Shown piece after piece: positions 14,369 to 45,880 of a stretch of DNA of 64,000 bases. A program made the position numbers and the translations under genes. The DNA comes from Patescibacteria group bacterium. GTDB taxonomy: Bacteria; Patescibacteriota; Minisyncoccia; Phycocordibacterales; UBA9973. Numbering within the stretch: position 1 is the first letter of the stretch; every line of letters begins with the position of its first letter. The notes below the pieces were generated by a model. That model ran no database searches, was not told where the DNA came from, and was given only the letters and a program-made list of their open reading frames with translations. Where the stretch lies: assembly GCA_028868715.1 (NCBI GenBank), contig JAGWUB010000001.1, positions 53,480 to 117,479 on the forward strand, written 5' to 3'.

Positions 14369-14502
14369 GCCCAAATGATAACACTTTAATTTCCTATAGC
14401 AAGCCCCCACACCTTTTGTTTTTAACGAAAGGTGTAGGGGCAAGTACTATTTTTTTGTTTAATTCTGTGCTAGAATATTCGAGTGTTAATAATTTAATAT
14501 TG

Positions 14503-14635
14503 TTTTATCGAGAGTGGTGGTAGAGAATTGGCTCAGCGACCCCACAGCAACCTAAAATATAAGGTGCTAACTCCAACCCTAACCGGGAAAGATAATTAGT
14601 CATTATATTTCCTGTGTTATCAGGAATTTTTTGTT
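14503..14635 (+). ncRNA. SAM-I (S-box) riboswitch with a terminator expression platform, upstream of metK.
   Basis: P1 is ttatc...gataa. It contains AGAGtGGtGGtAGAGA, GCAACC, and AAGGTGCTAACTCC (consensus AAGGUGCCAAUUCC). The terminator hairpin ttcctgtgttatcaggaa plus tttttt is at 14609-14633. Confidence 0.65.
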
Positions 14636-14650
14636 TTCAATTATCTCACC

Positions 14651-15628
14651 ATGAAAAAAACAGCCGAATTTGTAAGCCCAAAACATCCCGACAAAATTTG
14701 CGATTTCATCGCCGACAGTATTTTAGATGCTTACTTGGAGGGCGACAGAGAAAGCCGAGTTGCGATTGAAATAATGGGCGGACACAATTTGATCACTATC
14801 AACGGTGAAGTTACTTCCAAGAGTAGTCCGAATATAGAAAAGCTGGTGAAAGAAATTGTCGGAGAAAGTTATAAAGTTGTAACCAATATTGTTTTACAAA
14901 GTACAGAAATTGCAGAAGGTGTGAACACCGGCGGAGCAGGAGACCAAGGAATTATGAAAGGTTATGCCACAAATGAGACAGCCGAATACCTACCACTAGA
15001 ATACGTACTGGCTCGTGATTTGTGCCAAAAAATATTTAATGTGTATCCCTACGACGGCAAAACCCAAGTAACTATAGAGGGTGACAAAGTGCTCACTGTG
15101 GTTGCCAGTTTTCAAAATACAAAAAATGACGAACTTTTAAAATTAACTAAAGAAATAATTAAATCTAATGAATATTTGATAAATCCAGCGGGAGAATGGA
15201 CATATGGTGGTTTTGACGCGGACACCGGACTTTCCGGTAGAAAATTAATCATAGACAACTATGGTCCGCAAATAGCAATCGGTGGTGGCTCTTTTTCAGG
15301 TAAAGATGCCACCAAGGTAGATCGCTCTGGTGCCTATATGGCGCGTTATGTCGCTAAAAATTTAGTTGCGAGTGGATATGGCAAAGAAGTATTAGTCTCT
15401 GTGGCGTATGCTATCGGCATGGCTGAACCATTGATGATAGAAGCTGTAAATGAAAAGGGTGAAGACTTGGCAGATATTGTAAAGAAAAATTTTGATTTTA
15501 AACCACTTGCCATCATCACCCGCCTCGGCTTGCGTGATCCGATCTTTCGCCAAACCGCCACCTATGGCCACTTCGGCAAACCAAATTTACCATGGGAAAA
15601 AGTTGAGAAAATAAAAGTAAAAAAGTAA
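14651..15628 (+). CDS. metK: S-adenosylmethionine synthetase, a short 325-aa form.
   Basis: Carries HPDKICD, GDQGIMKGYATNET, GLSGRKLIIDNYG...GGGSFSGKDATKVDRSGAYMARYVAKN and YGHFGKP motifs. Confidence 0.85.
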   Translation: MKKTAEFVSPKHPDKICDFIADSILDAYLEGDRESRVAIEIMGGHNLITINGEVTSKSSPNIEKLVKEIVGESYKVVTNIVLQSTEIAEGVNTGGAGDQGIMKGYATNETAEYLPLEYVLARDLCQKIFNVYPYDGKTQVTIEGDKVLTVVASFQNTKNDELLKLTKEIIKSNEYLINPAGEWTYGGFDADTGLSGRKLIIDNYGPQIAIGGGSFSGKDATKVDRSGAYMARYVAKNLVASGYGKEVLVSVAYAIGMAEPLMIEAVNEKGEDLADIVKKNFDFKPLAIITRLGLRDPIFRQTATYGHFGKPNLPWEKVEKIKVKK

Positions 15629-31415: not shown

Positions 31416-31503
31416 ATTTTCATGATAACATAATTATAAATTTTTGTTATAAGCTAGAATATTAAAATTTTTTGTGATATATTAGATTAGCTTTTAGCTA
31501 AAA

Positions 31504-31577
31504 CGGGCTGTAGTATACCGGTAGTACAAGCGCTTTGGGAGCGTTTAGACTGGGTTCGATTCCCAGCAGCCCGACCA
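31504..31577 (+). tRNA. tRNA-Pro (anticodon UGG), CCA encoded.
   Basis: Manual cloverleaf: acceptor CGGGCTG/CAGCCCG, D-stem GTAT/GTAC, anticodon stem AGCGC/GCGTT with loop TTTGGGA, T-arm CTGGG-TTCGATT-CCCAG, discriminator A, then CCA. Confidence 0.75.
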
Positions 31578-31598
31578 GTTGTTTAAAATGATCATATT

Positions 31599-31669
31599 GC
31601 GGGGTTAGTTTATCGGTAAAATAACAGTTTTCCAAACTGTGGTGAAGGGTTCGACTCCCTTACCCCGCA
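31599..31669 (+). tRNA. tRNA-Gly (anticodon UCC).
   Basis: Acceptor GCGGGGT/ACCCCGC, D-stem GTTT/AAAT, anticodon stem ACAGT/ACTGT with loop TTTCCAA, T-arm AAGGG-TTCGACT-CCCTT. CCA is not fully encoded. Confidence 0.75.
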
Positions 31670-31775
31670 CCGAAGTAAGGGATAAGCAAACAAATTTATT
31701 TGTTTGCGGAGGGAGGAGAAAGGCTTTTCTGTGTTGAGCGAAGTGAAACAGAAAAGCACCTGGCTATGTAATAGC

Positions 31776-31794
31776 CGACTCCCTTACCCCGCAC
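31776..31794 (+). repeat. 19-bp perfect direct repeat of the tRNA-Gly 3' end (cgactcccttaccccgcac; first copy 31652-31670).
   Basis: The exact duplication lies 124 bp downstream of the tRNA. Two strong hairpins sit between the copies (gcaaacaaat-tta-atttgtttgc and gcttttctgt...acagaaaagc). Confidence 0.6.
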
Positions 31795-31802
31795 TAGATT
31801 AG

Positions 31803-32216
31803 TCACAAAATAACATCACTGACTACTTTTACCTTAGCTTTTTTGGTTTTTAAGTCTAAATATACAACCAAAAGATCCACCTGCCACTCTATGTCATCAT
31901 CTATTTTTTTGTCTAAAAGATAAGTTTGGATTGTCCGTGATAAACGTTTCATTTTCCATGGGTGCATATTATCTTCTGGATTATATCCATCTTCCCCTTC
32001 TGATTTTACCAAGGTTTCACTCGGCAAATGAGAAACTGATTTCACTTCCACAAAATAAAGTTTGTTGTCTTTCTTTGCAACAATATCAATTTCACCCCAT
32101 TTTTTAGTGTAATTTCTATCCAATACTGAAAAGCCGTGTTTCACGAGAAACTTTTCAGCTATATTTTCACCAATTTCTCCTGTTTTTTGTTTTTCAGAAG
32201 TAAAAACTTTTGGCAT
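31803..32216 (-). CDS. YraN/UPF0102-family predicted endonuclease.
   Basis: EIGENIAEKFLVKHGFSVLDRNYTKKWGEIDIVAKKDNKLYFVEVKSV matches the YraN consensus (GE.AA..YL...G..IL.RN.R...GEIDLIA...L.FVEVK.R). Confidence 0.65.
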   Translation of the reverse strand: MPKVFTSEKQKTGEIGENIAEKFLVKHGFSVLDRNYTKKWGEIDIVAKKDNKLYFVEVKSVSHLPSETLVKSEGEDGYNPEDNMHPWKMKRLSRTIQTYLLDKKIDDDIEWQVDLLVVYLDLKTKKAKVKVVSDVIL

Positions 32217-32454
32217 TTTGGTTGTGTTTCATAAGAAACATGTTTCACATGAAACCTTTTATCGAAATTTTGTCTTTTAGTAAAATATCCTTATATAACA
32301 ACATATTTTCAATATAATGACACTAAAAAGACAGATTATAAATATGTCCTTTATACACATACTAACAGTTTTATCCACAGTTTTGTGTAAAACCCTTATA
32401 GCTAAAGCTTTTGCAAAAGGACAATAATTTTAAATAACTTATAGGCTATTTTTG

Positions 32455-32526
32455 TGCACCCGGAGGGATTCGAACCCCCAACGACGGTTCCGAAGACCGG
32501 CGTGATATCCATTTCACTACGGGTGC
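32455..32526 (-). tRNA. tRNA-Arg (anticodon UCG), tentative.
   Basis: The minus strand gives GCACCCG-TA-GTGA-AATGGATA-TCAC-G-CCGGT-CTTCGGA-ACCGT-CGTT-GGGGG-TTCGAAT-CCCTC-CGGGTGC-A. The acceptor and T-arm are good. The anticodon stem has one terminal mismatch. Confidence 0.6.
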
Positions 32527-32648
32527 AGCGAATATAAATTATACCTTATTTTAATCTAATATCAAAATATCTTTATTTTACAAGCTTAAAACGTAAAATT
32601 GCAAAGTGCTGTATATAGTATATAATTATTAAATTAAAACTAATCAGC

Positions 32649-32719
32649 GCGGTGTTGGTTTAGTGGTAGAACACGTCCTTGCCAAGGATGAGACAGGAGT
32701 TCGATTCTCCTACGCCGCA
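32649..32719 (+). tRNA. tRNA-Gly (anticodon GCC).
   Basis: Acceptor GCGGTGT/ACGCCGC, D-stem GTTT/GAAC, anticodon stem CGTCC/GGATG with loop TTGCCAA, T-arm AGGAG-TTCGATT-CTCCT. This closely matches a canonical bacterial tRNA-Gly(GCC) from memory. Confidence 0.75.
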
Positions 32720-32730
32720 CAAGTTCCAAA

Positions 32731-34281
32731 GTGGAAACAAATCTTAAAAATTTAATATCAAAGATACCTAAAGAAGTTTCACATGTAACCAATGTCTTAG
32801 AAAAGGCTGGTTTTGAGGCATATTTAGTTGGTGGATGCGTCCGAGATCTTATTATGAACAAGAAACCCAAGGATTGGGATATTACTACAAATGCCACCCC
32901 AGAAGATATTGTGGGACTCTTTGAGAAAACAGTTTATGAAAATACTTTTGGAACGGTGGCAGTTTGTATTCCTACTAAGGAGGGTGTTATTCATGAAACA
33001 ATTGATAAGGATGTTTCTCGTGAAACTCCAGAATATATGATTATAGAGGTTACTCCTTTCAGACTTGAGGCAAAATATACTGATTTTAGGCACCCAGATG
33101 AGGTAAAATTCAGTAATAAGCTGGAAGATGATCTTAAGAGACGTGATTTCACCATTAATGCCTTGTCCTATAGAGTAACAGGTAAAGGACATAATCTAAC
33201 GGACATATTTGATGGCCTAAAGGACATAGAAAATAAGGTGTTACGGACAGTAGGGAAGCCAGATGAACGTTTTGGTGAAGACGCACTTCGTATGCTTCGA
33301 GCGGTACGTTTTGCAGTACAATTAAATTTTTCTATTTCGGAAGAGACGGTGAAAAGTATTTTAAAAAATTCTAATTTAATAAAAAAAATATCAGCAGAAA
33401 GAATTCATGATGAATTTGTAAAAATAATAAATTCACAAAATCCAAGTGCCGGAATTGTGATGTTGCAAAAATTTGGATTGTTAAAAAATATTATTCCAGA
33501 GCTAGAAGAGGGTATCGGTTGTATGCAGTCCGGCGAGCATGTTCATGATGTTTGGCAGCATTCGCTATATGCCCTGCAACATGCGGCAGACAAGAATTGG
33601 CCTTTAGAAATAAGGCTCGCAGCGCTTTTTCATGACATTGGCAAGCCCAAAAGTCGCCGAGAAGAAGGCCGACCAGGCAAGAAGCAATATACCTTTTATG
33701 GCCACGAAGTCATCAGTGCCCGAATGGCAAAAAAAATAATGGAGCGACTAAAATTTCCAAAAAAAGAAATCGAATTGGTTTCCAAACTTGTTCGCAATCA
33801 TATGTTTTTTTCTGACACAGAATTAATTACTCTTTCAGCTGTCCGAAGAATAATTGTCAAAATTGGTAAAGAAAATATTTGGGATTTGATGCATGTGCGC
33901 GAGTGCGACCGAGTGGGTACTAGTAAAAAAGAGACGTCCTATAGACTCCGTAAGTATCATGCGATGATTGAGGAAGCCCTCCGAGACCCAATATCTGTCA
34001 GTCAATTGAAAATTAACGGTGAATTTATGATACAAGAGCTTGGAATTAAGCCTGGCCCTAGAATGGGGTGGATTTTGAGCGCACTTCTGGAAGAAGTCTT
34101 GGATGATCCATCAAAAAACACCGTAGAACACCTTTCGGAGCTCACTAAATCCTTAAATATGCTCGGGAATCCAGAGCTTAAAACCCTAGGAGAGCGAGGA
34201 AAGGAGAAAAAAGAAGAACTAGAAGAACGTGAAGTAGCCAAACTCCACCAAAAACATGGGGTACGGAAACAAAATAATTAG
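32731..34281 (+). CDS. cca: CCA-adding tRNA nucleotidyltransferase with a C-terminal HD domain.
   Basis: Pol-beta NTase head GGCVRDLIMNKKPKDWDITT, the poly(A) polymerase head/neck region, and an HD domain (LFHDIGKP...HE). This fits the tRNAs that lack an encoded CCA. Confidence 0.8.
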   Translation: METNLKNLISKIPKEVSHVTNVLEKAGFEAYLVGGCVRDLIMNKKPKDWDITTNATPEDIVGLFEKTVYENTFGTVAVCIPTKEGVIHETIDKDVSRETPEYMIIEVTPFRLEAKYTDFRHPDEVKFSNKLEDDLKRRDFTINALSYRVTGKGHNLTDIFDGLKDIENKVLRTVGKPDERFGEDALRMLRAVRFAVQLNFSISEETVKSILKNSNLIKKISAERIHDEFVKIINSQNPSAGIVMLQKFGLLKNIIPELEEGIGCMQSGEHVHDVWQHSLYALQHAADKNWPLEIRLAALFHDIGKPKSRREEGRPGKKQYTFYGHEVISARMAKKIMERLKFPKKEIELVSKLVRNHMFFSDTELITLSAVRRIIVKIGKENIWDLMHVRECDRVGTSKKETSYRLRKYHAMIEEALRDPISVSQLKINGEFMIQELGIKPGPRMGWILSALLEEVLDDPSKNTVEHLSELTKSLNMLGNPELKTLGERGKEKKEELEEREVAKLHQKHGVRKQNN

Positions 34282-36700: not shown

Positions 36701-37648
36701 TTAACCTTTATTATGAAACCTTTTATATATGTCCCGCAAATGTTTGTCAGTCACGTGAGTGTAGATCTGAGTGGTGCCTATGTTGGCATGACCCAAGATG
36801 GCTTGCACCGAACGCAGGTCTGCGCCGTTACTCAGTAGATCCGTCGCGAAGCAATGTCGTATCACGTGTGGGGTAACTTTTTTTGAAATGCCTGACTTGA
36901 TGGCATGCTGTTTTACAATTCTTTCTATGGATCTACGAGTAAGTGGATTAATATTTTTGTTTTTTATAACCGCGCCCTTACTCAAAGATTTTTTTGATAT
37001 TTCATTTGGCACTTGTAAAAACAACGCTTCGCTCATGTCTTTGCGAGCTGTTAAATAATTTTTTAAATATTTTTTCGCGTTGGGGGATATAAACACCACG
37101 CGTACTTTACCACCTTTCCCACGAATAGATAACTCTTCCGAGGACAAGTCTATGTCGGCAGTCAAAGAACACAATTCTGAAACACGTAGTCCAGTAGAAA
37201 ATAAAAGTTCTAGAATTGCTTTATCGCGCAGATCTTTTAGGTCACTACCTTTTGGTGAGTCTAGCAATCTATTTAGTTCAGCTGGAGTGATCAAGTCCAA
37301 AGAACGTTCACTGACTTTGGCTAGTTCGATGCGTTCAGCTGGGAGTGACTTCACTTCTTGTCTTGCCAAATATTTTAAAAATGCGCGCAGTGCAATGAGA
37401 TAATAATTTTGAGTTTTTTTTGTTAAAGTTTCTCCCTTGGCTTTGGCATTTCCAGCGCTCTGCCGATTGAGCCAGAGACGAAATTCGCGCACGGAAGTAT
37501 CGGTGATATTGGCCGGGTTATCATTTTTAGAAAATTCTAAAAACCGAGATAAGTAGTGGTCGTAATTTCGAACAGTGTGTAGTGACCGTCCTTTTTCTAT
37601 TTCAGTATATTCCAAAAACTGAGTTTTTAATTGTTTGAGGGAAGCCAT
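36701..37648 (-). CDS. Tyrosine site-specific recombinase XerC/XerD.
   Basis: C-terminal catalytic region HVIRHCFATDLLSNGADLRSVQAILGHANIGTTQIYTHV with the R..H..R..Y residues. An N-terminal SAM-like core-binding domain precedes it. Confidence 0.85.
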   Translation of the reverse strand: MASLKQLKTQFLEYTEIEKGRSLHTVRNYDHYLSRFLEFSKNDNPANITDTSVREFRLWLNRQSAGNAKAKGETLTKKTQNYYLIALRAFLKYLARQEVKSLPAERIELAKVSERSLDLITPAELNRLLDSPKGSDLKDLRDKAILELLFSTGLRVSELCSLTADIDLSSEELSIRGKGGKVRVVFISPNAKKYLKNYLTARKDMSEALFLQVPNEISKKSLSKGAVIKNKNINPLTRRSIERIVKQHAIKSGISKKVTPHVIRHCFATDLLSNGADLRSVQAILGHANIGTTQIYTHVTDKHLRDIYKRFHNKG

Positions 37649-44936: not shown

Positions 44937-45016
44937 TTTGCTTTTTAAAAAGATGTTACAATATAAGCATAACTAAATTAGATTGGTTAAAACAAAAAAA
45001 GGTAATTTTTATAACC

Positions 45017-45880
45017 TTGGCGGTGGTTTTTGTCGTTGTGCTTTTTCTCACAAAAAACAAAACTTTCTTTACAAATACAAGACCAGATGGACTAGTTTAC
45101 AACGGAAATGAAAAAATTCAAGATTTAGTAAATAGGGACACTGATGGAGATGGTGTACCAGATTGGGAAGAATCTTTATATGGGACTGATCCGACTAAAA
45201 AATCCACTTTTGATGGCATTCCAGATGCCGTGTATATAGCCAAATTAAGTGGACAATCACCGCAAAATGGAGAAATAAACCTAAATATCAAAGGGCAGGA
45301 AAATTTGACGCAAACAGATCAGCTTTCCAGAGAGCTTTTTTCCAGTGTGGCGGCCTTAAATCAAGCTGGGGGTATAGACCAAAATGCCGTAGACCAATTA
45401 AGTAATTCCTTGGCTAGTAAGATACAAAACGGAGAAGCTAGAAAAATGTTTGTATATTCTGATGTTAGGGTTGGGAAAAGTGATAGTGTGCAGGCTATAA
45501 AAAATTATAATACCACGTTAAATAATATTTATTCTAAATATCCAATGAAATACACGATAGGTGATGTGCTGCAAAAATTTATTATTGATCAAAACAATGT
45601 CGACGAGAGTGTATTGCCACAATTCGATCCGATCATAAAACAGACAAACAATATCATAAATGATATGTCTAAAATGGATGTGCCGCCAAGTTTAGCATAT
45701 CTGCACTTAGATACGTTAAATAAATTAGAAAAAGTATACGAAAATGTCACTGACATTAGACAATACAGCACAGACATAGTTGTAGCTATGAGTGGTATCA
45801 GCCAATATCAGACAAGCGCCGATAATTTAGTTTCCAGCACAAATAATCTGGCTAGTGCCATAGAAAATAGATTGAAATAA
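45017..45880 (+). CDS. Membrane-anchored hypothetical protein with a DxDGDGxxD calcium-binding-like motif. It is the first gene of the T4SS-like block and appears to use a TTG start.
   Basis: N-terminal TM VVFVVVLFLT. DTDGDGVPDWEE is a thrombospondin-type-3/calcium-binding-like motif. No ATG is available, so the start is uncertain. Confidence 0.4.
   Translation: MAVVFVVVLFLTKNKTFFTNTRPDGLVYNGNEKIQDLVNRDTDGDGVPDWEESLYGTDPTKKSTFDGIPDAVYIAKLSGQSPQNGEINLNIKGQENLTQTDQLSRELFSSVAALNQAGGIDQNAVDQLSNSLASKIQNGEARKMFVYSDVRVGKSDSVQAIKNYNTTLNNIYSKYPMKYTIGDVLQKFIIDQNNVDESVLPQFDPIIKQTNNIINDMSKMDVPPSLAYLHLDTLNKLEKVYENVTDIRQYSTDIVVAMSGISQYQTSADNLVSSTNNLASAIENRLK

Follow-up and report, generated by a model that had tools for sequence, protein, structure and literature searches.

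The gene for the glycine transfer RNA with anticodon UCC [tRNA-Gly(UCC)] in a Patescibacteria group bacterium is followed by a short structured sequence that ends in a second copy of the tRNA 3′ end. The locus lies in a 64,000-nt stretch of assembly GCA_028868715.1 (contig JAGWUB010000001.1, positions 53,480 to 117,479 of the forward strand), which we call the window and whose first base is position 1. We propose, at a probability of roughly 0.5, that this sequence (31672–31794, hereafter the module) is an intact copy of a family of structured RNA elements of ~105–125 nt that hitchhike on the ends of tRNA and transfer-messenger RNA (tmRNA) genes in the Nomurabacteria/Paceibacteria group. The family is apparently undescribed. 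Its members share a covarying fold that is selected on one strand only, are associated with host tRNA genes, are cleanly inserted relative to empty sites and have a patchy distribution. The second copy of the tRNA end (copy 2; copy 1 lies within the tRNA gene) is not debris: it forms, without a break, the 3′ side of the helices by which the fold is closed.

Insertion behind the tRNA gene

An earlier note on this DNA, made from the sequence alone, had reported a direct duplication of the 19-mer CGACTCCCTTACCCCGCAC. The repeat is exact and occurs twice, 124 nt apart (Table 1); with up to 3 mismatches allowed, no further match was found elsewhere in the 64-kb window, and 0 were found in 100 shuffles. 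Copy 1 comprises the 3′ part of the T loop (TT|CGACT), the 3′ strands of the T stem and of the acceptor stem, the discriminator A31669 and C31670. The locus sequence is identical in two other samples of the same strain.

The note had suggested that related genomes be compared for an occupied or an empty site, and both were found. In about 40 relatives the junction of tRNA-Pro and tRNA-Gly(UCC) is empty and consists of a short spacer, often CCCGA-CATT-GCGGGA. At occupied Pro–Gly junctions, copy 1, the module and copy 2 are followed by the ancestral spacer and tRNA-Gly; the spacer after copy 2 is CCCGA-CATT-GCGGGA in two loci (L065, L080), and other ancestral spacers are found in two more (L004, L028). 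An occupied site exceeds an empty one by exactly 18 nt plus the module body, and the tRNA is left intact. The event was an insertion that duplicated the tRNA 3′ end from the T loop onwards. In the closest relative of the window (L203; 88% YraN identity) the tRNA block is inverted, with the tRNA-Pro 5′ sequence inverted beside yraN, and the contig ends there, so that this genome provides no empty site for the exact window locus. The YraN protein encoded in the window is identical to a protein annotated in a metagenome-assembled genome of Patescibacteria, and its relatives are Nomurabacteria/Paceibacteria.

Anatomy of the module

Throughout the family the parts follow one order: a linker (0 to ~60 nt), in many copies a P0 5′ strand, hairpin 1 (HP1), one or two bases, the P1 5′ strand, AAAG, hairpin 2 (HP2; GCTTTTC/GAAAAGC), ACCT, hairpin 3 (HP3; GGCTAYGTRRTAGC) and the copy of tRNA positions 56–73. 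The P1 5′ strand consists of 10 nt complementary to tRNA positions 56–65, and the P0 5′ strand complements the acceptor 3′ strand; HP1 divides this antisense segment into two parts. Copy 2 runs as one strand through the stacked HP3, P1 and P0, from which HP1 and HP2 branch off.

In the window, P1 has seven contiguous pairs (one of them G–U), a tandem G–A/A–G and then a G–C pair, with GAGGGAG facing CTCCCTT of copy 2. The nearly invariant G31718 and the junction AAAG together make up a conserved GAAAG motif. The end of HP3 and the start of copy 2 overlap in a single base, C31776, whose pairing in HP3 competes with the terminal G–C pair of P1. The apex of HP2, UUGAGCGAAGUGAA, is of the G–A-rich internal-loop type. 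Within the linker, GTAAGGGAT is common to Gly(UCC) modules; most tRNA-Gly(UCC) genes have ATCCC in the acceptor 3′ strand, to which it is complementary, whereas its complementarity to the ACCCC found here is partial. In the minimum free energy (MFE) fold of the module locus the linker GGG is paired with CCC. The 129 nt at 31672–31800 fold with −44.9 kcal/mol, compared with −27.6±3.1 kcal/mol for shuffled sequences (z=−5.6).

Two hairpins between the copies had been described in the earlier note. The second, our HP2, is a 10-bp hairpin as claimed. The first exists as well, but not with the perfect 10-bp stem and 3-nt loop given for it: it is a perfect 22-nt palindrome and realistically has 9 bp and a 4-nt loop, since a stem of 10 bp would keep only 2 loop bases. 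HP3 and the long-range pairing of GAGGGAGGAG with copy 2 had both been missed. No second copy of the module was detected in the 64-kb window, where the next match, at 44983–45110, scores 17.9 bits and is at chance level.

Table 1. Features of the module locus, in window coordinates
Feature	Position	Strand	Remarks
tRNA-Pro(UGG)	31504–31577		directly before tRNA-Gly(UCC)
tRNA-Gly(UCC), host gene	31599–31671	+	ARAGORN; Rfam tRNA, 63 bits
Copy 1 of 19-mer CGACTCCCTTACCCCGCAC	31652–31670	+	tRNA C56–N73 + 1 nt; sequence reading
Linker CGAAGTAAGGGATAA	31671–31685	+	includes GGGAT (31679–31683), a weak P0 5′ strand
Whole module	31672–31794	+	covariance model of the 62-sequence alignment, 112 bits, E=1.6e-23
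HP1 GCAAACAAATTTATTTGTTTGC	31686–31707	+	9-bp hairpin, loop UUUA; apex GCAAA-NNNN-UUUGC conserved
P1 5′ strand ('guide') GAGGGAGGAG	31709–31718	+	antisense to nt 1–10 of copy 2, CGACTCCCTT
Junction AAAG	31719–31722	+	A31720, A31721 and G31722 invariant, A31719 nearly so (62-sequence alignment)
HP2 GCTTTTCTGT/ACAGAAAAGC	31723–31757	+	10 bp, 15-nt loop; base GCUUUUC/GAAAAGC conserved, apex variable
Junction ACCU	31758–31761	+	A, C, C invariant; U nearly invariant
HP3 GGCTATGTAATAGCC	31762–31776	+	GGCUAU-GUA-AUAGCC; no spacer to copy 2
Copy 2 of 19-mer CGACTCCCTTACCCCGCAC	31776–31794	+	exact match search
Copy 2, P1 3′ strand	31776–31785		
Copy 2, P0 3′ strand	31786–31792		followed by A31793 and C31794
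Flanking proteins			ZIP transporter, YraN/UPF0102, CCA-adding enzyme, LysM-M23 peptidase, PNPase (polynucleotide phosphorylase), Xer-type recombinase

Covariation of the fold

We tested the structure on an alignment of 62 sequences in which the five helices were written explicitly (41 pairs). Standard pairs were formed in 88.0% of the cells, compared with 73.1±0.5% when partners were shuffled (0 of 500 shuffles reached the observed value); when partners were slid by 1–3 columns, pairing was 38–50%. Both sides change in 32 of the 41 pairs, and the covariation score was 0.405 versus 0.150. In HP1, compensatory changes occur at all 9 pairs and 94% of the cells pair. HP2 pairs in 92% of the cells, with strong covariation at 57–103, 58–102 and 64–96, and HP3 in 99.7%. 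Six of the 10 pairs of P1 covary family-wide. Compensatory substitution beyond the controls is the general mark of a structured RNA family, and all three hairpins are kept in this way. RNAalifold, to which no structure was supplied, recovered all three hairpins and the T-stem half of P1 de novo; in its solution HP3 may extend by two pairs (including G108–C122) at the cost of the last two pairs of P1.

The antisense strand of P1 follows the host tRNA. It reads GAGGGATTCG against CGAATCCCTC behind tRNA-Arg, CTGGGGATTG against CAATTCCCAG behind tRNA-Pro and GGGACTCG against CGAGTCCC behind tRNA-Val, and it pairs with its own copy at 8.93 of 10 positions, compared with 7.07 of 10 for copies from tRNAs of other amino acids. 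Because non-palindromic T loops are matched too, the segment is an antisense sequence and not a copy of the 5′ half of the tRNA's own T arm.

Strand and molecule

If only one strand folds, G–U should be tolerated within helices and A–C should not, and this is what was found. The counts of G:T versus A:C were 24 and 10 in HP1, 16 and 7 in HP2, and 22 and 0 in HP3. The closing pair of HP3 was U–A in 29, U–G in 21, C–G in 12 and C–A in 0 sequences of the 62-sequence alignment; among the 114 copies listed, the same pairs were counted 54, 31, 29 and 0 times, with a search pattern that admitted all four combinations. As U–G is common and C–A absent at this position, only the tRNA-sense strand is selected to fold.

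Judging from the sequences, the folding molecule is most likely RNA, made together with the tRNA. Module and tRNA always point the same way, tandem G–A pairs and loops that are GAA or GNRA-type are found at the hairpin apices, and U–G behaves as a neutral intermediate beside a 3-nt loop. Where the module lies between tRNA-Pro and tRNA-Gly(UCC), as in several loci, it stops ~4 nt before the latter, so that expression of the downstream tRNA would need read-through.

Hosts and variants of the family

Relatives were collected as 80 species-representative loci around YraN homologues, in which each tRNA was scanned for repeats of its own ends. Besides that of the window, 16 tRNAs were followed by an exact 18–23-nt copy of their own 3′ end; the hosts were Pro(UGG), Arg(UCG), Gly(UCC) and Gly(GCC). 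Copy 2 lay 109–125 nt downstream, or 144 and 200 nt with an extra hairpin. In all of these cases it started at C56 of the T loop, and it ended 0–5 nt beyond the discriminator. The spacers between the two copies are homologous to each other across the loci.

In a metagenome sample, at least 120 stretches matched the conserved-core pattern ACCTGGCTAYGTRRTAGCCRA. Among the matches listed, the bases after the pattern are the 3′ part of the upstream tRNA, and the hosts include tRNAs for Ala, Val, Gly, Leu, Pro, His, Glu, Arg, Ser, Lys, Thr and Phe, among others. A hidden Markov model (HMM) profile search of the fetched loci and the listed metagenome matches gave 159 matches. A tRNA on the same strand was present within 330 nt upstream of 136 of them, in 31 anticodon classes among the matches listed, and none of the 159 had a tRNA on the opposite strand only. 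Apparently orphan modules proved to be contig ends, degenerate copies or, in two cases, modules with tmRNA hosts. The latter stand directly behind tmRNA genes and copy the tmRNA 3′ end (L161, 5949–6494; L166, 3849–4400).

Several variants were noticed. In a larger subfamily (L084, L153, L126, L093, L133), HP2 is replaced by a longer interior of the form GAGTCGGGGTCGCGAG-hairpin-ACTTGTGACCGAA, while P1, GAAAG and an HP3-like GUAAU hairpin are kept. The extra-hairpin variant (L084, L117, L128, L147, L154, L166, L171) carries CGATAAGCGTACTCGCGGT between HP3 and the copied T-stem strand. Linkers in L085, L149, L161, L169 and L185 often form a long perfect palindrome with arms of up to ~26 bp, which runs from the acceptor 3′ strand via a terminator-like hairpin to the P0 5′ strand. 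Such a linker could let the antisense arm zip up with the end of the real tRNA as well. In L011, a large-type module between tRNA-Pro and tRNA-Gly(UCC) carries its interior the other way round between the arms; recombination of the inverted arm with the copy would be expected to produce this. Upstream of some modules without a called tRNA (L107 at ~1700–1850, L149, L093) we noted the motif AGGTTCTAACTT, which may represent another RNA or the 3′ part of a tRNA that is degenerate or contains an intron.

The same clade contains a second, different kind of partial tRNA duplication, at the 5′ end. About 90 nt upstream of tRNA-Pro(UGG), many relatives have a conserved partial pseudo-tRNA-Pro, as in L012, L039, L043, L045, L046, L058, L071, L080 and others. 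It covers positions 1 to ~47, lacks a T arm and has a changed anticodon loop; the A/T-rich spacer of ~60 nt behind it contains a promoter-like TATAAT. In L020 and L047, tRNA-Gly(GCC) is preceded by a 5′ partial copy that is shorter. In the window (31440–31503) no pseudo-tRNA-Pro is present.

Evolution of the copies

The distribution of the module is patchy, with 18 copies in 16 of the 80 species loci, and the nearest YraN relatives of occupied loci mostly have no copy at the same tRNA. Degenerate or truncated second copies occur, as do tandem arrays, some of which mix subtypes (L084, L200).

The mean body identity is 0.77 between copies on the same tRNA and 0.69 between copies on different tRNAs; copies on different tRNAs of one contig share only 0.59–0.74, and only tandem copies are alike. 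The nearest neighbour of a body has the same anticodon in 36 of 97 cases, compared with 8% expected by chance, and belongs to a different tRNA in the other 61. The body of the window copy, behind tRNA-Gly(UCC), is closest to Pro(UGG) copies (0.93, 0.89 and 0.88), compared with at most 0.85 for other Gly(UCC) copies. These values exceed the 99th percentile of body identity between different-tRNA pairs (0.85), and the sequence comparison suggests that the window copy is a case of retargeting from Pro to Gly. A foreign tRNA already offers ~7 of the 10 P1 pairs, so that retargeting would need few substitutions.

In 79 of 99 family members the two copies agree over all 18 nt. Arg and Leu modules without P0 leave the acceptor part of copy 2 unpaired within the module, and yet this part is identical to the tRNA. 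As the identity extends over all 18 nt, including this unpaired part, the two copies evolve in concert; gene conversion or repeated insertion could account for it, and so could selection that keeps copy 2 identical to the tRNA.

Comparison with known families

Rfam 15 gave no match at the module, either at gathering score over the whole window or at E≤10 at the locus. For five loci with larger variants, searched at E≤1, there was again no match to the module; only tRNAs, tmRNA and, elsewhere, a SAM (S-adenosylmethionine) riboswitch were returned. Viral contigs contained 0 matches to the core pattern, and blastn of the module against phages and plasmids found none. No such element is described in the full texts that we searched, which cover the literature incompletely, so that an earlier description is possible. 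The nearest descriptions concern group I introns, which have been found in tRNAs of Patescibacteria (PMC13011429) and in the T loop of tmRNA (PMC11915505).

Several known classes were considered and rejected. Inspection by eye spoke against hammerhead and similar ribozymes: the module has GAAA but lacks CUGAUGA, and its junction strands are of the wrong length. A group I intron is contradicted by the length (124 nt is too short), by an end in C instead of G, by the lack of an Intron_gpI core and by the complete tRNA upstream.

The module resembles miniature inverted-repeat transposable elements (MITEs) and repetitive extragenic palindromic (REP)-type repeats (e.g. Correia, RUP, BOX, RPE) in being ~100–150 bp long, non-coding, multicopy, patchy and foldable as RNA. 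In contrast to these, its terminal 'inverted repeats' are copies of the 3′ half of the host tRNA and not fixed sites for a transposase, so that the inverted arms differ with each host tRNA; it occurs only at tRNA and tmRNA ends, and its fold is multi-branched and covarying. The duplication of 18–23 nt is the tRNA end itself, and no near-identical copies at unrelated sites were found, the body identity within single contigs being the 0.59–0.74 given above.

With tRNA-like modules (the tRNA-like domain of tmRNA, mascRNA, bacterial Y RNA, viral tRNA-like structures) the module shares the reuse of acceptor and T-stem sequences at places where processing enzymes would set ends. Unlike them, it has neither a T loop nor a free NCCA-type end, and it has no tRNA-clan Rfam match. 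A chargeable tRNA-like structure was rejected: the T loop is replaced by the extended P1 with HP2 and HP3, and P0 is partial, absent or reaches past the discriminator.

Neighbourhood in the window

After the discriminator A of tRNA-Gly(UCC) come CC and then G (31669–31672), so that CCA is incompletely encoded. The gene for the CCA-adding enzyme (PolyA_pol head and HD domain) lies 1 kb off at 32731–34281, beside a second tRNA pair. The two tRNA pairs of the window, Pro/Gly(UCC) and Arg(UCG)/Gly(GCC) (31504–31671 and 32454–32720), flank yraN. Across species these pairs are found in both orientations (L003–L082), that of the Pro–Gly pair in the window being the minority, and the sequence comparison points to recurrent inversions around the tRNAs that flank yraN.

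On the minus strand, HP3 (31762–31776) followed by AGGTGCTTTT has a weak terminator-like score just downstream of the convergent yraN, which ends at 31803; this may be incidental. No canonical terminator was found on the plus strand inside the window module. A SAM riboswitch (S box; 56.5 bits) lies at 14502–14598 on the plus strand, upstream of an open reading frame (ORF) at 14651–15628.

Discussion

In the reading that we favour, the module RNA would be produced within the tRNA precursor, and tRNA-processing enzymes would cut it free as a closed, nuclease-resistant small RNA. Copy 2 would keep the antisense arm occupied and so prevent it from invading the real tRNA. The element would spread slowly between tRNA ends by insertions that duplicate C56–N73, and it would be a dispensable hitchhiker, selfish or accessory, on tRNA promoters and not an essential part of the tRNA gene.

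Several points weigh against this proposal. Transcription, processing and release of the module RNA are steps that we infer. A DNA strand exposed during replication would also be expected to fold strand-specifically; RNA is favoured, not proven. A terminator-like linker palindrome stands between tRNA and module in several relatives and would limit co-transcription there. P0 is the weakest helix: 64% of its cells pair, it covaries with tRNA identity and it is absent in some host classes. In the window, P0 has only 3–5 bp and P1 has two mismatches. The metagenome sample was drawn with the pattern ACCTGGCTAYGTRRTAGCCRA, which sits inside HP3, so that the family is broader, and its HP3 more variable, than the sample shows. 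As to mobility, neither an insertion enzyme nor a circular form was found, and the copies on different tRNAs within single contigs give no sign of a recent burst. A copy 2 that is unpaired and yet identical to the tRNA (Arg, Leu) is explained in this scheme only via gene conversion or recent insertion. Finally, the fold has been conserved for long in old, vertically inherited copies; this argues for some selection on it and suits a host function as well as pure selfishness, or better.

Such a function is the substance of one alternative, possible if rather unlikely in our estimate: the module could be a tRNA-specific RNA device serving the host, with the antisense arm and the sense copy acting on the cognate tRNA or its precursor. 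Possible roles are to steer 3′-end processing, to sequester or release the tRNA 3′ half within read-through transcripts, to act as a decoy for a factor recognizing that half, or to bind a protein of the kind that binds the T arm or acceptor. Such a device would account better for the long conservation of the fold and for how exactly copy 2 follows the tRNA. The fold and its core are kept by compensatory change over species-level divergence, copy 2 is exact to the host tRNA in 79 of 99 members even where it is partly unpaired, the orientation is strictly that of the tRNA, and the arm is equally complementary to copy 1, with linkers that are often palindromic. A device of this kind fits poorly, however, with the occupation of only 16 of 80 loci and with close relatives that have no copy at the same tRNA. 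Nor is the module tied to particular tRNAs (31 anticodon classes among the matches listed, and tmRNA); the degenerate copies and mixed-subtype tandem arrays are what dispensable elements typically show, P0 is optional, and no concrete activity can be named.

We also weighed, and consider unlikely, an element of single-stranded DNA (ssDNA), in which the sense strand would fold as DNA, e.g. on the lagging-strand template, and a recombinase or HUH nuclease, supplied by the host or in trans, would insert or excise it. The arm and copy 2 would rebuild a duplex equal to positions 56–73 of the tRNA gene, as a cargo-less analogue of the hairpin attP of CTX phage and of integrative mobile elements exploiting Xer (IMEXs), of integron attC or of a T-shaped hairpin terminus. 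The layout does match hairpin-attP geometry: inverted target-like cores ~90 nt apart (sense, antisense, ~90 nt, sense) fold on one strand between direct repeats at the junctions, and the P1 (P0) duplex corresponds to tRNA gene positions 56–65 (to 73). Structure is conserved more than sequence in the module arms, as in attP and attC, folding is strand-specific, the stem is T-shaped with two side hairpins, and an Xer-like recombinase is present, unlinked, in the genome. The 3′ ends of tRNA and tmRNA genes are classic recombinase targets. Since tRNA genes usually point with replication, their sense strand would be exposed. Islands integrate at tmRNA 3′ ends (PMC11915505).

Set against this are RNA-like features. 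U–G makes up 27–34% of the HP3 closing pairs and behaves as a neutral state beside a 3-nt loop, which would be costly in DNA, and the apices are of RNA type (GNRA, GAA loops, tandem G–A). In contrast to attP and attC, the module targets a tRNA end and not dif or attI, and its three separately conserved hairpins and invariant junction bases have no counterpart in the hairpins of attC or attP. No linked or partner recombinase, no cargo version among the copies listed and no viral, phage or plasmid copy was found.

Quite unlikely, and more speculative, is a view of the module as an RNA-level agent that reads tRNAs without a protein gene of its own. Its bipartite arm (P0/P1, split by HP1) would recognize the 3′ half of a specific tRNA or tmRNA, and the conserved three-way junction, exactly at HP3|C56, would be the active site or dock a protein. 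The agent would act after U55. It would either propagate the element, as a new class of mobile RNA that targets tRNAs or of ribozyme-like retro-element, or else regulate, exchange or mend the 3′ half, for which the cis copy would be a substrate, an inhibitor or a spare. There is a possible likeness to bipartite guide RNAs, as in the H/ACA pocket or the bridge and seek RNAs of IS110-type elements: two antisense segments flank a conserved hairpin, one target strand is bound and a three-way junction is formed (P0, HP1, P1). Unlike these, the module supplies its 'target' in cis and has no associated protein gene.

The scar proposed in the earlier note, attL and attR of a nearly deleted island with a 105-bp random remnant between them, is very improbable. 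Its geometry stands: as comparison with empty sites confirms, there was an insertion next to a tRNA gene, flanked by a direct repeat of the tRNA 3′ end, and this repeat, from the T loop onwards, is the identity block usual for integration of the T-loop type. The integrase has no support, and the remnant does not hold. No integrase or island gene lies between or beside the repeats, the window insert (31672–31775) contains no ORF or integrase fragment, and the only tyrosine recombinase in the neighbourhood (36701–37648) is Xer-like, 4.9 kb off and behind housekeeping genes. No kilobase-sized or cargo-bearing version was seen among ~110 copies listed, although an exact upstream repeat was sought at any distance, and none was found beyond tandem-array spacing.

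A remnant should have idiosyncratic content, whereas the insert is a complete unit, homologous and structurally conserved in all copies. The same layout, with a body of mostly ~90–105 nt, the same core and covarying helices, recurs at more than 100 independent places in many species and in 31 anticodon classes. The note itself had named conservation of spacing and repeat in distant relatives as an argument against a scar; in substance they are conserved, though the copies vary. Nor are yraN and the 'DnaA box', which the note had placed on the far side, linked to the element, as copies sit in many other contexts. Known T-loop-targeting integrative elements also insert at tRNA or tmRNA genes, duplicate the 3′ end, restore the tRNA and form tandem repeats at one tRNA; the module differs from them in lacking an integrase, cargo and a long form and in having a ~105-nt fold on one strand with an antisense copy of the target.

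Scarcely credible, finally, is a decayed tandem tRNA duplicate (pseudo-tRNA) or an intron-like insertion into the T loop, with copy 2 as the real 3′ half. In its favour, the 5′ strands of the tRNA acceptor and T stems recur in sequence as P0 and the first half of P1, so that the module can be drawn as a tRNA without anticodon arm, and when all 202 nt are folded together, copy 2 pairs with the 5′ end of the tRNA in the MFE structure. U55 is moreover a typical −1 base for group I introns, and those known in tRNAs of Patescibacteria and in tmRNA T loops share with the module the phylum, the genes and the T-loop site after U (PMC13011429, PMC11915505). The module differs from them: its 124 nt have no group I core, terminal G or ribozyme match, and the tRNA upstream of it is complete and uninterrupted without splicing. 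For a duplicate, the identity boundary is too sharp (19 of 19, then nothing), and the antisense of P1 continues into the T loop (e.g. CAATT/AATTG, CGAGT/ACTCG), which a tRNA copy would not do. As the non-tRNA parts are homologous across all host tRNAs, they are not derived from each tRNA.

If the hitchhiker reading is true, the 3′ ends of Patescibacteria tRNA and tmRNA genes would carry a widespread, unnoticed class of structured elements that encode a copy and an antisense of the last 18 bases. Partial tRNA duplications in these genomes, which are routinely read as island boundaries, would not be such boundaries. The module would also offer a compact RNA (~120 nt, five helices, invariant junction bases) with strong covariation that is suited to structural and biochemical study. 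The finding raises the question of how a non-coding unit can be inserted into almost any tRNA at the T-loop base C56, and of what keeps its fold under selection in extremely reduced genomes.

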